Shown here one piece after another: positions 1 through 4,872 of a stretch of 64,000 bases of DNA. Origin of the DNA: an uncultured Candidatus Rokubacteria bacterium. GTDB lineage: Bacteria; Methylomirabilota; Methylomirabilia; Rokubacteriales; DASRDR01. The stretch lies in NCBI GenBank assembly GCA_963805625.1, contig CAWDVE010000010.1, positions 2,016,001-2,080,000 of the forward strand, given 5' to 3'. The notes beneath the pieces were generated by a model. That model saw nothing but the letters and a program-made list of their open reading frames with translations, was not told where the DNA came from and made no database searches. Every line of letters starts with the position of its first letter. Position 1 is the stretch's first letter. Made by a program: the position numbers and the translations under genes.

Positions 1-805
1 GCGGATGGTCGAAATCGACCTGGGCGAAATCGAGCGGGATCGTGCCGCCCAGCAGGCTGGCCCACGGGCGTCCGTTCCGGAGCGCGTCGGCGCGGGCATC
101 GGGATCGAGGTGCGGCAGCAGGACGACGCGCTCGAGTGTCGGCATCGCCCGCACGAGCTCCTGGATCGCCGGCCGGCGGTCGAAATCCCGACCTCCGTAG
201 CGGTAGCCGTCGACGGCGAACAGGACCTTCGGCTCGATCTGCTTGAACCGGTCGATCACGGCGCCCGACCCCATGTCCGGCGAGCAGCTCGACCAGATCG
301 CACCGAGGCTCGCGCACGCGAGGAACGCCGTGATCGTCTCCGGGATGTTCGGCATGTAGGACACGACCCGGTCGCCCGGGGCGACGCCCATGGCGCGCAG
401 GGCGGCGGCGACCGATGCGACGTCGTCCTGGAGCTCGGCCCACGCGATCTCCCGGCGGGCGCGGCCCTCCGACACCGCGATGAGCGCGGGGTGCTCGGCC
501 GATGCGTACCGCAACGCGTGCTCGGCGTAGTTGAGCCTGGCGCCCTCGAACCAGCGGGCGCCCGGCATCGTGTGCGCGTCGAGCACCCTTACGTCCGGCG
601 CCGCGGCCTGGATGGCGAAGTAGCTCCAGAGCGACGTCCAGAACGCTTCAATGTCCGTGACGGACCACCGCCAGAGGGCCTGGTAGGAGTCGAACGCGAG
701 CCCCTCGTGCTCCATGAGCCAGCGCATGTAGTCGGCCATGCGGCTCGCGGCGCGACGCTCGGAGGACGGCTCCCACAATACGGTGCCCTCGGTCACTGCC
801 GCCAT
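1..805 (-). CDS. Acetoacetate--CoA ligase (acetoacetyl-CoA synthetase), 5' part; runs off the window edge
   Basis: Manual minus-strand translation from ATG at 805: MAAVTEGTVLWEPS...YQALWRWSVTDIEAFW...WFEGARLNYAEHAL...GDRVVSYMPNIPET...GAIWSSCSPDMG...DRFKQIEPKVLFAVDGYRYGGRDFDR, typical of the family. Missing from the ORF track because it has no stop in the window. Confidence 0.9.
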   Translation of the reverse strand, partial: MAAVTEGTVLWEPSSERRAASRMADYMRWLMEHEGLAFDSYQALWRWSVTDIEAFWTSLWSYFAIQAAAPDVRVLDAHTMPGARWFEGARLNYAEHALRYASAEHPALIAVSEGRARREIAWAELQDDVASVAAALRAMGVAPGDRVVSYMPNIPETITAFLACASLGAIWSSCSPDMGSGAVIDRFKQIEPKVLFAVDGYRYGGRDFDRRPAIQELVRAMPTLERVVLLPHLDPDARADALRNGRPWASLLGGTIPLDFAQVDFDHP

Positions 806-1131
806 GGAGTGACATGTAGCATAAGATGGCCCCCCTTGGGGGAACCGGCGAAGCCCGAGCGCCCATCGCAATGGCAACGAAGTGACAACGAGCCCAAACG
901 CTCACTGAGCGCGGCCCGAGTACCGTCCCACCCTGACGTGGCGCAGCTTCCTCGGTTAGCCGGTCCCTCACCGACGCCCTTGTCCCGGATGCATTGGCCA
1001 TGACCAATCTCCACGAGGTGAACCAGACCTCTCGATCCGCCTCGGCGGATCGGGGCCAGCCACGTTTTCCCTGTGCAATAGCCTGAGGACGCCCGAGTCT
1101 GGGCTGCGACGGGTGCCGCCCGGTGCCGTCC

Positions 1132-1161
1132 TTGACACCGCCCGCGCCGACCGCGCACCAT
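1132..1161 (+). promoter_or_regulatory. Candidate sigma70 promoter upstream of the nitrile hydratase operon
   Basis: Perfect TTGACA (1132-1137), 18-bp spacer, weak -10 CACCAT (1156-1161). A second TACAAT lies at 1322-1327. Confidence 0.4.
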
Positions 1162-1379
1162 CGAGGTCGAACGGGTCATGGCTGACTTCGTCCGCCAGCC
1201 CTCTCTGGGGGGAACGGAGGAAACGGCCGAGACGGGGCTGTCTGTCGACTACCCCCTCGACGAAGTCCTCAGCTCCCGGCCCTGAGCTCCCCGGGCGTCG
1301 CGATCGGCCTGGCGCACGGGCTACAATCCCGAGCGACTGACTCGGACGACTGGCCGGATCGACGGGAGCGAGCGAGGAC

Positions 1380-2051
1380 ATGGACGGGATCCACGACCTG
1401 GGAGGCATGCACGGGTTCGGCCCGATCGACGCCGACCCCGCCGAGCGGGGATTCCACGCCTGGTGGGAGCCGCACGTGGTGGCGTGCGTCGACGCCGGGA
1501 TCGCCTGGCCCCTCTTCAGCATCGACGAGTATCGCCACAGCCGTGAGCGCCTGCCGCCCGTCCACTACCTCGAGGCCAGCTACTTCGAGCAGTGGCTCGA
1601 CTCGGCGTGTCAGCTCCTGGTCGAGAAAGGCATCGTGAGCCGCGAGGAGCTAGAGGCCCGGGTCCAGCTCTTCGCGGCCCGCCCGGAGAGCGAGGCGACC
1701 GTGGCGATCACGCCCCGGGAGCCGCCTCCCCGGGACGGGGTCGCCCCGGCCACCTTCCGCCGTCCGATGGCCGCCCGGCCGCGGTTCAGCGAGGGCGACC
1801 GCGTGGTCACCCGGAACCTGCACCGGGCCGGCCACACGCGGCTTCCCCGCTACGCGCGGGGCAAGCGAGGAGTGATCGCCTCCCGACGCGGCGGGTGGGT
1901 CTTTGCCGACACCAACGCCCACGGGCTCGGCGAGGATCCCCAGCACCTCTACAGTGTCCGCTTCGAGGCCGACGAGCTGTGGGGCGAGTCGGCCGAGGCG
2001 CGGGCGGCCGTCTACCTCGACCTGTGGGAGAGCTATCTCGAGCCCGCGTGA
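1380..2051 (+). CDS. nthB: Nitrile hydratase beta subunit
   Basis: N-terminal MDGIHDLGGMHGFGP, DEYRHSRE, YFEQWL, HTRLPRYARGKRG, PQHLYSVRF and the C-terminal DLWESYLEPA signature; GAGGA RBS. Confidence 0.97.
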   Translation: MDGIHDLGGMHGFGPIDADPAERGFHAWWEPHVVACVDAGIAWPLFSIDEYRHSRERLPPVHYLEASYFEQWLDSACQLLVEKGIVSREELEARVQLFAARPESEATVAITPREPPPRDGVAPATFRRPMAARPRFSEGDRVVTRNLHRAGHTRLPRYARGKRGVIASRRGGWVFADTNAHGLGEDPQHLYSVRFEADELWGESAEARAAVYLDLWESYLEPA

Positions 2052-2671
2052 GCGGGCGGGCGGAGAGTGCCGTGGGCAAGAATCACGCGAAGGTCGACCC
2101 CTACGTGGTGTCCCGTGTCCGTGCCCTGGAGTCCCTGCTCCTCGAGCGGGGCGTGCTCGCCCCCAATGCCGTGGACAAGGTCGTCCGCCGCTACGGCGAG
2201 GCCACGGGACCGTTGCTCGGCGCCAGGGCGGTGGCCCGGGCCTGGGTCGATCCCGCGTACCACCGGCTCCTCCTCGAGGACTCCCGTGCGGCGTTGGCTG
2301 CCCTCGGCCTGAACTACGACCGGCTGATCGTGGTCGAGAACACGCCAGCCGTGCACAACCTGGTCGTGTGCACGCTCTGCTCCTGCTACCCGTGGGAAGT
2401 TCTCGGGCTTCCCCCGACCTGGTACAAGCTCCCGGCCTACCGCTCGCGCGCCGTCTCCGAGCCCAGACAGGTCCTCCGGGAGTTCGGACTCGACATCCCG
2501 CCGACCCGGGACGTTCGCGTGTGGGACTCCAGCGCCGAGGTGCGGTACATGGTCCTGCCCCAGCGCCCGGCGGGCGCGGAGGGTCTCGGCGAGGAGGCGC
2601 TCGTCCGGGTGATCCCCCGAGATGCGCTGATCGGGGTGGCCGAGGTGACGCTCACGCCGGCCCCGGCTTGA
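2048..2671 (+). CDS. nthA: Nitrile hydratase alpha subunit, cobalt type
   Basis: Metal-binding VVCTLCSCYPW (Thr/Tyr = Co-type signature), GLPPTWYK, YRSRAV, VRVWDSSAEVRYMVLPQRP. GTG start overlaps the nthB stop (GTGA). Confidence 0.97.
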   Translation: MSGRAESAVGKNHAKVDPYVVSRVRALESLLLERGVLAPNAVDKVVRRYGEATGPLLGARAVARAWVDPAYHRLLLEDSRAALAALGLNYDRLIVVENTPAVHNLVVCTLCSCYPWEVLGLPPTWYKLPAYRSRAVSEPRQVLREFGLDIPPTRDVRVWDSSAEVRYMVLPQRPAGAEGLGEEALVRVIPRDALIGVAEVTLTPAPA

Positions 2672-3525
2672 TCCGGCCGCCCGTGTACGAGCGGCAGCGC
2701 AACATCGTCGTCCGTCCCGACGGGAAGCGCGTCAACGTGGCGCGCTTCCGCGGCCAGCTCTTCGTGTGCGCGAGCGGCTGTTGCTGCGGCCGCACGGAGG
2801 ACGGCTTCGCTCCCGTCCCCGCGGAGACCCTCCACCGGGAATGGGAGCGCCGCCGACTCCGGAACGTGGTCCATCTCACCATGGGCGGCTGCCTCGGGCC
2901 CTGTGCGCTGGCCAACGTCGCGCTCCTCCTCTTCGACGGGGAGGCCCAGTGGTTCCACACCATCGACTCCGACGCCTTGGCGGTGGCGCTGTACGACCAC
3001 GTCGAGCGGATGCTGGACGCCGACACCGTTCTCCCGCCCTCCGCCGCCCTGGCCGCCCACCACTTCACCGCCTCGTCATGGCAGCCGCGCCCCGACGGGC
3101 AGCCTGTCGACGATGCGCGCCTGTGGCGGGCCGCACGGGGGACCCACGGCTGCGCACCGTCGGCCTCCGGCCTCGCGGTCGGGACCAACCAGCTCACGGT
3201 GGAGCGCGTGGTGAGCGCGATGAGTGGGGAGGCGGCGCTCCCCCGGAAGAACGGCGAGCTGGTCTTCGAGGAGCCCTGGCAGGGCCGGGTGTTCGGGATG
3301 GCGGTGGCACTCCATGAAGGAGGGCTGTACGAGTGGGAGGAGTTCCGCCAGACGCTGATCGCCCGCATCTCCGCCGCCGAGGCGCGGGGCGGGCCGTTCG
3401 CCTACTACGAGGTCTGGCTGGAGACCTTCGAAGCGCTCCTGGGCCGCAAGGGGCTCATCACCCGTGAAGAGCTGGACGAAACCACTTACCAGTTCGAGTT
3501 CGGCGAGCGGGACGAGGTGTTCTGA
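2668..3525 (+). CDS. Nitrile hydratase accessory/activator protein fused to an N-terminal thioredoxin-like (2Fe-2S) ferredoxin-type Cys-rich domain
   Basis: TTG start overlaps the nthA stop (TTGA). N-terminal CASGCCCGRT...GGCLGPCALANV; C-terminal PRKNGELVFEEPWQGRVFGMAVAL...WEEFRQ...YYEVWLETFEALL (NHase accessory, P14K/NhlE-like). No stop between the domains. Confidence 0.85.
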   Translation: MIRPPVYERQRNIVVRPDGKRVNVARFRGQLFVCASGCCCGRTEDGFAPVPAETLHREWERRRLRNVVHLTMGGCLGPCALANVALLLFDGEAQWFHTIDSDALAVALYDHVERMLDADTVLPPSAALAAHHFTASSWQPRPDGQPVDDARLWRAARGTHGCAPSASGLAVGTNQLTVERVVSAMSGEAALPRKNGELVFEEPWQGRVFGMAVALHEGGLYEWEEFRQTLIARISAAEARGGPFAYYEVWLETFEALLGRKGLITREELDETTYQFEFGERDEVF

Positions 3526-3798
3526 GCAATCGGGCCGACAGGGACCTGCCCACCCACCGTGTCGACCAGTCTCCGGTGGGGGATCGGGTCGGCGGCGATA
3601 ACCAGGCCGGCGGCGAAGCGCGGCGACGGCTGATTGTAGCGGAGCGGCGCGCCGTCGAGGTCGGTCGTGGCGCCCCCTTCGGGGGAACGGCCGAGAAGGA
3701 GCCTATGCCGACTACCCGCGCTCCGGTACCGCCTTCGCGCAAGAACCGAATCCCTTCATCGGCAACTGAAAGCTCGTAACACACGAGGGAGGACAATC

Positions 3799-4872
3799 AT
3801 GAACCTATCGCTGGTAGTGGCGCGGGCGGCGGCGAGTTTCGCACTGCTCCTGGTCGCGATTGCGGCGGCGGCGCAGCAGAACTGGCCGGCGCCCAAAGAG
3901 GCCGACTGGATCGCCAAGGACTTCACGTTCCACAGCGGCGAGACGATGGATCTGCGCGTGCACTACACGACGGTCGGCGATCCGTCCGGAATGCCGGTAC
4001 TGATGCTGCACGGCACCACCGGCTCCGGCATCGGCTTGCTGACGCCGGCCTTCGCGGGCCAGCTGTTCGGCCCCGGCCAGGCGCTCGATGCCACCAAGTA
4101 TTTCGTCATCCTCCCCGACGCGATCGGCCACGGCAAGTCGTCGAAGCCGTCGGACGGCCTGCGCGCCAAGTTCCCACAATACAATTACGACGACATGGTT
4201 GCGGCCCAGTATCGTCTCGTCACCGAAGGCCTCGGCATCCGTCATCTGCGCCTCGTCATGGGCAACTCGATGGGCGGCATGCACACCTGGATCTGGGGCG
4301 TCAGGCACCCCGAGTTCATGGACGCGCTGGTGCCGATGGCCTCGCAGCCGACCGCGATGTCGTCGCGCAACTGGATGCTGCGCCGCCTCATCACCGAGAC
4401 CATCCGCCGCGACCCGGACTGGAACAACGGCAACTACGCGACGCAACCGAAGGGTGCGCAGTTCGCCAGCGTGTTCTACGGCATCGCCACCGCCGGCGGC
4501 ACGCTCGCCTACCAGAAGCAGGCGCCGACGCGCGAGCTGGCCGACAAGGTCGTCGACGACCGCCTCAACGCGCCGTTCGCCGGTGACGCCAACGACGTGC
4601 TCTATCAATGGGCTTCGTCGGGGGACTACAATCCGGCCCCGGGGCTGGAGAAGATCCAGGCGCCGCTGCTTGCCATCAACGCCGCCGATGACGAGCGCAA
4701 CCCGCCGGAGACCGGCCTGATGGATAACGCGCTCAAGCGCGTGAAGGGCGGCAAGCTTTACCTGATTCCGGCCAGCGAGGACACGCGCGGCCACAGCACC
4801 ACCGGCTTCGCCAAGTTCTACGCCAAGCAGGTCAGCGACTTCATGCAGACCGCGCCGAAGGGCACCAGGTGA
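3799..4872 (+). CDS. Exported alpha/beta hydrolase, homoserine O-acetyltransferase-like
   Basis: GGAGG RBS, Sec signal (LLLVAIAAAAQQ), LHGTTGSG, GNSMGG nucleophile elbow, ADDERNP, TRGH. Confidence 0.88.
   Translation: MNLSLVVARAAASFALLLVAIAAAAQQNWPAPKEADWIAKDFTFHSGETMDLRVHYTTVGDPSGMPVLMLHGTTGSGIGLLTPAFAGQLFGPGQALDATKYFVILPDAIGHGKSSKPSDGLRAKFPQYNYDDMVAAQYRLVTEGLGIRHLRLVMGNSMGGMHTWIWGVRHPEFMDALVPMASQPTAMSSRNWMLRRLITETIRRDPDWNNGNYATQPKGAQFASVFYGIATAGGTLAYQKQAPTRELADKVVDDRLNAPFAGDANDVLYQWASSGDYNPAPGLEKIQAPLLAINAADDERNPPETGLMDNALKRVKGGKLYLIPASEDTRGHSTTGFAKFYAKQVSDFMQTAPKGTR

Follow-up and report, generated by a model that had tools for sequence, protein, structure and literature searches.

A nitrile hydratase activator fused to a six-cysteine ferredoxin-like domain related to the N-terminus of CobN

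The stretch of Rokubacteria DNA analysed here (64,000 nt, referred to as the window) carries a gene for a 280-aa protein in which a predicted thioredoxin-like ferredoxin (TLF) domain with six cysteines is joined to a nitrile hydratase (NHase) activator domain. We propose, with the chances about evenly balanced, that the tethered TLF domain captures cobalt and passes it to the alpha subunit of the enzyme. The suggestion of an earlier note on this DNA, that a cobalt chaperone or redox module may be wired into the activator, fits all of the comparative evidence given below.

The molecular details of NHase maturation are described as largely lacking in a 2024 review (PMC11672702). Open questions are the route of cobalt to the buried site and what reduces, then oxidises, its cysteines. 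The fusions bring a candidate cobalt donor or redox partner into the activator protein and, should the domain also supply CobN, a single part would connect the handling of cobalt for corrin and non-corrin targets. New here are reverse-order fusions behind nthBA with a single origin rejected, predicted selenoprotein relatives, and a suggested ligand set with an extra thiol pair. In the open-access literature, no description of a TLF-activator fusion, no study of the N-terminal TLF domain of CobN and no description of selenocysteine forms of the domain were found.

Table 1 Features of the NHase locus and of the fused gene, with positions in the window. Residue numbers refer to the fused protein.
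Feature	Position	Strand	Basis or remark
Acetoacetate-CoA ligase	2-805	-	Neighbour of the NHase operon
nthB, NHase beta subunit, 223 aa, both halves intact	1380..2051	+	TIGR03888, 232 bits against a cut-off of 152; PF21006 and PF02211
nthA, NHase alpha subunit, 199 aa	2072..2671	+	TIGR01323, 257.6 bits against a cut-off of 249.85; start agrees with relatives
Alpha-subunit metal site CTLCSCY, Co-type signature	2369..2389	+	Sequence
Fused TLF-activator gene, 280 aa	2683..3525	+	Third gene, behind Co-type nthB-nthA
N-terminal beta-hairpin, residues 1-21	2683..2745	+	Model strands E8-10 and E16-18
TLF domain, residues 22-134	2746..3084	+	Predicted fold
C29-x3-C33-C34-C35-G motif	2767..2790	+	Predicted roles: cluster ligands for C29 and C35, extra thiol pair for C33/C34
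C70-L-G-P-C74	2890..2904	+	Distal Cys pair of FeSI and HydB at the same alignment positions
Linker, variable, low confidence	3085..3198	+	pLDDT <50 for residues 143-194
Conserved His155-x-Cys157 in the linker	3145-3153	+	Conservation among 120 relatives
NHase accessory (activator) domain, resembling the N-terminal half of beta	3199..3522	+	TIGR03889 at 3265-3474; PF21006
Acidic conserved tail of the activator domain, YQFEFGERDEVF	3487-3522	+	Conserved among relatives
MetX-like alpha/beta hydrolase	3799-4872	+	PRK06489, above cut-off

The fused gene and its surroundings

The frame 2668-3525 (+) is open throughout and, as described earlier, encodes C-A-S-G-C-C-C-G and G-C-L-G-P-C in its first half, followed by an NHase accessory domain. 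The start implied earlier, TTG 2668, would overlap the nthA stop codon (TGA, 2669-2671), but translation probably starts at GTG 2683, which is 11 bases past this stop, since the database copy of the protein (P0002) has 280 aa and relatives begin at the same position.

A check for a missed stop near 3130-3200 had been advised, and none was found. An independent soil-metagenome contig (record 22) covers 2867-3484 without a gap and differs by 12 substitutions, and none of the 11 substitutions checked creates a stop. The best 120 of 1040 matches, obtained in a search restricted to similar lengths (longer and shorter proteins were searched in addition), are without exception full-length fusions of 270-285 aa, with 75-100% identity and 95-99% of the query length covered. 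Relatives of known organism belong mostly to Rokubacteria/Methylomirabilota, and some to Chloroflexota.

Within the phylum, the domain was matched in 126 of 251 genomes and closely in 55, with 56 matches at E<1e-60. Fifty of these strong matches, the own locus included, were examined: 36 are in-frame fusions, seven have the activator part adjacent with the frame broken or cut (assembly errors or real splits), one is ended by a contig end, and six are free domains without NHase. The alpha gene lies upstream in 34 of the 36 in-frame fusions and is absent from the stretch of sequence covered for the other two. A missed stop or an assembly-made fusion was rejected on the strength of the relatives, the gapless contig, the phylum survey and the substitutions free of stops. 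Three apparent alpha-TLF-activator triple fusions (P0122, P0203 and P0226) were also rejected, being frameshifted read-throughs.

The alpha-subunit motif CTLCSCY, which we take to be of Co type by the Thr/Tyr rule, is identical in all 25 of the loci L001-L027 that contain the alpha site. The position of the fused gene behind nthB and nthA follows the order beta-alpha-activator, described in PMC7193024 as usual for Co-type NHases. A split beta subunit, with the activator part as an AnhD-like N-terminal piece, was rejected in view of the intact nthB upstream.

No amidase adjoins the NHase operon in the window. The neighbours of fused operons differ between loci, with an amidase upstream in L100, L105 and L106. 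In many fused operons the gene immediately ahead of nthB encodes DUF7676 (PF24724), which is also present in one cobalamin-riboswitch operon; DUF7676 matches 30 loci, including duplicates (examples are L003:4050-4628, L007, L013, L016, L119:7014-7616 and L130:3087-3614). It was not found in the source genome, and a literature search gave no paper naming it. In L018, a frame of 1480 aa ahead of nthB was considered as CobN and rejected, as it is DUF748. No riboswitch or other RNA family reached the gathering score in the window, a further 12 loci, among them five fusions, gave none either, and no sigma-70-like promoter was found in 800-3900. The RNA contigs of one run touch nthB and nthA and include mere scraps of the fused gene, and thus have no bearing on its expression.

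A second Co-type NHase is present in the source genome (G000:C13:142300-147400; L068:7302-12382), with alpha-beta order and a His-rich alpha N-terminus. Its plain activator gene is located about 3.3 kb downstream of the alpha-beta pair, beyond two short reverse-strand genes, antitoxin/PIN-like by eye, and a large regulator-like gene. This plain activator is 40% identical to the C-domain of the fused protein.

Domains, cysteines and predicted selenoprotein relatives

The identification of the C-terminal half as an NHase activator was borne out by TIGR03889 (71.5 bits against a cut-off of 46), and the fused protein falls below the beta-subunit model (TIGR03888, 48.8 bits against 152). Sequence and context alike place the C-domain in the Co-NHase activator family. 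It has in common with NhlE, NhhG and P14K (TIGR03889) a helical domain like the N-terminus of beta, the third position in the operon and a Co-type alpha subunit; unlike these, the fused protein is twice as long, with an N-terminal six-Cys TLF, a Cys-bearing linker and an acidic tail. Co-type activators are small stand-alone proteins, and the 280-aa fusion is therefore a variant. The C-terminus of P14K is positively charged, as given in PMC7193024.

Fe-type NHase activators (COG0523 GTPases with CxCC, Nha3) likewise tie a Cys cluster to metal loading of the alpha subunit, but they have a P-loop GTPase fold, whereas the fused protein combines a TLF with a beta-like chaperone. Identity with a COG0523 Fe-NHase activator was rejected, as no NTPase family in Pfam or NCBIfam matched and the TLF fold was found instead. 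A search for CobW in five genomes gave no guidance, since the family model matches other GTPases too.

By sequence, the N-terminal part gives weak ferredoxin matches, the curated ferredoxin model scoring 19.4 against 195 bits. The thioredoxin-like [2Fe-2S] ferredoxin fold, named in the earlier note, was recovered when the structure model was compared with solved proteins. The domain gave Z 11.3 with Azotobacter FeSI (5ABR; rmsd 2.3, 94 residues aligned), in agreement with Foldseek (5ABR, E 5e-4), Z 11.1 with the Aquifex protein 1F37 and Z 9.3 with 9JN8 of R. capsulatus. Residues 21-135 folded alone reached pLDDT 94.8 and pTM 0.87. The fold is that of these proteins and of HydB/NuoE, and the first and distal Cys pair align with theirs; the fused protein differs from the solved thioredoxin-like [2Fe-2S] ferredoxins in having 14-23% identity to them, a CCC triplet with two extra Cys, and a cluster that is predicted.

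The N-terminal hairpin is common to the copies borne by CobN, in which R6, V9, R11, D13, G14 and N18 are found at 93-100%, and is missing from divergent free copies of the phylum, where weak matches mostly start at about residue 24. The full-length model consists of two folded domains and a low-confidence linker; as a single chain it displays no inter-domain contact (pTM 0.48), which counts against cobalt hand-over. The TLF domain is conserved as well as the activator part (75-94% and 72-89%, respectively, per 20-residue window), while conservation in the linker windows 141-180 is 46-58%. Among the 120 best relatives, 111 have C157, 99 have H155 and 115 have some linker Cys.

All six cysteines of the TLF domain are kept in 442 of 457 homologs spanning the motifs. 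In FeSI and HydB, cluster ligands stand at the positions of C29, C70 and C74; the second ligand position aligns, depending on the profile, to C34 or to the third Cys, C35. The substitutions favour C35: the two intact-looking homologs that lack both C33 and C34 (P0431 and P0426) retain C29, C35, C70 and C74, and loss of C35 is seen in two garbled rows only. These few substitutions suggest C29, C35, C70 and C74 as the ligands of a [2Fe-2S] cluster and C33/C34 as an extra reactive pair; the C-x4-C spacing in the fused protein would indicate C34 as ligand, which counts against the choice of C35.

The number of cysteines may also be read as a sign that there is no Fe-S cluster, and that the ferredoxin fold and the six Cys make up a mononuclear or binuclear Co site, as in a classical metallochaperone. 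Six near-invariant Cys exceed the need of a [2Fe-2S] site, the CCC loop is unlike that of solved TLFs, and the curated ferredoxin score is far under its cut-off. We nevertheless regard this reading as improbable, given the alignment of C29, C70 and C74 with the ligands of FeSI and HydB and the persistence of the four-Cys subset where C33/C34 are lost.

Six distant homologs (L188-L193; E 1e-15 to 1e-18), two paralogs each in G509, G533 and G637, have the motif C-x-G-C-TGA-C-G with the TGA in frame at the middle Cys of CCC, the equivalent of C34. A G+C hairpin about 12 nt downstream of each TGA, of -19 to -21 kcal/mol over 50 nt, is predicted to be SECIS-like, and SelB above cut-off and tRNA-Sec were found in all three genomes. 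Because of the in-frame TGA at the C34 position, the hairpin and the Sec machinery, the six homologs are predicted to be selenoproteins. Selenocysteine usually takes the place of a reactive Cys, and can also ligate clusters; its predicted presence at this position speaks for a chemically active thiol at C34. The genes are very similar in three similar genomes, and the Sec form in these perhaps goes back to a single event. No cobalt neighbours were found at the Sec homolog genes, which counts against a function in cobalt hand-over.

In one fusion from Chloroflexota (L024/L167) a TGA stands at C70. It is probably an error and not a Sec codon, as no hairpin like those of the six genes follows (-9.7 compared with -19 to -21 kcal/mol) and the near-identical L152 has Cys. 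The selB gene of the source genome appears to be in two pieces (G000:C21:223609-225488), possibly due to an assembly frameshift, near tRNA-Sec at C21:228131.

CobN, other carriers of the domain and repeated fusion

The resemblance to the N-terminus of some CobN proteins, which had been pointed out earlier, proved to be real and close. CobN (PF02514) accounts for 117 of the 120 best long matches, with the TLF domain N-terminal and 50-70% identical across its whole length, hairpin and six Cys included (Chloroflexota, Meiothermus and others); the six Cys, H64 and H92 are invariant in all 117 copies. Matches to the domain were found in 62 of the 401 genomes from the phylum to which G253 belongs (Chloroflexota), most of the close ones in frames of 1400-1600 aa. 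The partner of the domain in the window, unlike the tetrapyrrole chelatase CobN, is a protein-maturation chaperone. CobN puts cobalt into a corrin (PMC7242693), and thus Co(II) supply is the obvious need common to CobN and NHase. As the source genome lacks CobN, the fused copy has no CobN to serve there.

Free copies of the domain are annotated '(2Fe-2S) ferredoxin domain-containing protein'. Of 20 loci with divergent free copies, the neighbours were scanned in 15: four copies lie behind cobB/cobQ-type or cbtBA genes, two of them with cbtA or cbtB. One of these four is part of a cobalamin-riboswitch operon. Counting against cobalt hand-over, no cobalt neighbour was found at 11 of the 15 divergent copies or at any of six close free copies. 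The source genome's own free copy (G000:C10:1672395-1672931, minus strand; L067:10400-10932) is frameshifted, by assembly error or decay, and lies directly behind a 49-aa cbtA remnant. In L161 (682-1436) a free copy is found directly upstream of nthB, a possible pre-fusion arrangement.

Other fusion partners, as seen in 58 of 150 listed representatives that were scanned, are YHS/HMA metal domains and a Co/Ni ABC ATPase. The YHS-fused subfamily adjoins HMA-type P-type ATPases in L197 and L202; the domain family is therefore not cobalt-only, which again counts against cobalt hand-over. Members of this subfamily (P0446, P0448, P0449 and P0459) have a longer first loop and YHS and HMA fusions, which suggests a copper-type use of the same domain.

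A profile search of 1.84 billion representatives gave 475 matches. Fusions with the activator first are P0373 (cluster of 11), P0376 and P0397 (cluster of 2), and they form two types, one comprising P0373, P0376 and L201 and the other P0397. Directly upstream of P0373-type fusions, nthB-nthA with CTLCSCY was found in all four complete metagenome loci and in genome G254. A CobN-like stretch appears by eye to be kept behind the domain of P0376, where Pfam makes no CobN call. Loci with reverse-order fusions are L140-L143 and L201.

In a quick tree of the domain (56 rows, alignment of 134 columns), the forward fusions form one clade (SH-aLRT 95); this clade and the two reverse types are each nested among CobN domains of their own, the reverse types with support of 98 and 99. 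The AU test rejected a single clade of all activator fusions (p-AU 1.07e-9), and also a clade of the forward and first reverse types (p 0.007, P0397 left out), with groups set by architecture, tests picked after viewing a tree, and P0335 and its duplicate P0510 omitted. A single origin of the activator fusions is thus rejected by the AU tests; on this short alignment, two or three fusion origins are likely, with the direction from CobN to activator.

The recurrence of the fusion bears on the idea that the TLF domain is a sensor or a passenger, joined to the activator via a shared cobalt-regulated operon. It would then make the activator respond to metal or oxygen status, or be idle for NHase. 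Such a role would suit the many NHases that mature with plain activators, the unrelated neighbourhoods of most free copies, and the long and loose linker. It would sit poorly with at least two, and probably three, separate fusions in both orders and with a conservation of the domain that equals that of the activator part, and it appears improbable.

Cobalt hand-over and redox chemistry

For other activators, PMC7193024 describes that apo-alpha is bound, that Co enters and the Cys ligands are oxidised in the complex, and that holo-alpha swaps into apo-NHase. In the cobalt hand-over proposed for the fused protein, the C-domain, whose family is assigned by sequence, would mimic the N-terminal half of beta and bind apo-alpha like NhlE and P14K. 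The N-domain, the fold of which is confidently predicted, would hold a [2Fe-2S] cluster via C29, C35, C70 and C74, as the substitutions indicate. C33/C34, perhaps together with His155/Cys157 of the linker, would form a surface thiol site binding Co(II), from which the metal would be handed to the CTLCSC motif of alpha, the cluster keeping the C33/C34 thiols reduced. The loaded and Cys-oxidised alpha subunit would then swap into apo-NHase, a step known for other activators and assumed here. Where it is fused to CobN, the same TLF module would feed Co(II) to CobN.

The main rival is that the TLF is a redox module only and carries no Co, its cluster and C33/C34 either reducing the Cys of apo-alpha for Co entry or helping to oxidise them to sulfinate/sulfenate. 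The fold is that of electron-transfer TLF domains, in vitro Co insertion into apo alpha-activator complexes uses DTT, mercaptoethanol or GSH (reports in PMC3511329 and PMC7329996), a redox function of activators is proposed in PMC7193024, and the predicted Sec at C34 suits thiol redox chemistry. Nevertheless, the closest copies of the domain are borne by CobN, which has no NHase-type cysteine site to reduce or oxidise, and the neighbours and partners (CbtA/CbtB, Co/Ni ATPase, YHS, HMA) are metal parts and not reductases. On balance a purely redox function is judged rather unlikely. Hand-over of cobalt is preferred because the main clients, CobN and NHase, share a need for Co(II) and not a cysteine chemistry, and because the remaining fusion and neighbour partners are metal transport or binding parts.

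Classical activators are described in PMC7329996 as enabling rather than delivering cobalt, which counts against hand-over; direct cobalt transfer by an activator is also reported, in PMC7193024. A further point against it is that TIGR03889 is over cut-off in 127 of the 251 genomes of the phylum, compared with 55 having a close copy of the domain. As many activators lack the domain, and the second NHase has a plain activator, the TLF would be an optional aid and not a requirement.

A role in loading cobalt into proteins, so far unstudied, is likely for the TLF domain. Tentatively, and with more doubt than belief, the six-Cys TLF may be a mobile, unrecognised cobalt-delivery domain, that is, an Fe-S protein whose extra vicinal thiols (a selenol in some lineages) capture Co(II) without GTP. 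It would serve cobalt insertion of both the corrin (CobN) and the non-corrin kind (nitrile hydratase), and would have moved from CobN onto activators on three occasions, as forward and as reverse fusions. Co-type NHases are used industrially to catalyse amide production, and the domain could aid their expression.

By language-model features, the clusters nearest to the domain include DUF1636 (PF07845), at a score of 0.95 and with DUF1636 in 18-26% of members. The resemblance to CbiW-type proteins named in the earlier note was examined through DUF1636, which gave no match in the TLF domain, and 22 distant homologs reach at most 22.9 bits against a gathering cut-off of 31.6. CbiW is named in operon lists (PMC7895991, PMC8123684). 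DUF1636 is described as TLF-like (PMC4520260), and its gene as the leading one in a cobalamin operon under riboswitch control (bioRxiv 2025.12.19.695462).
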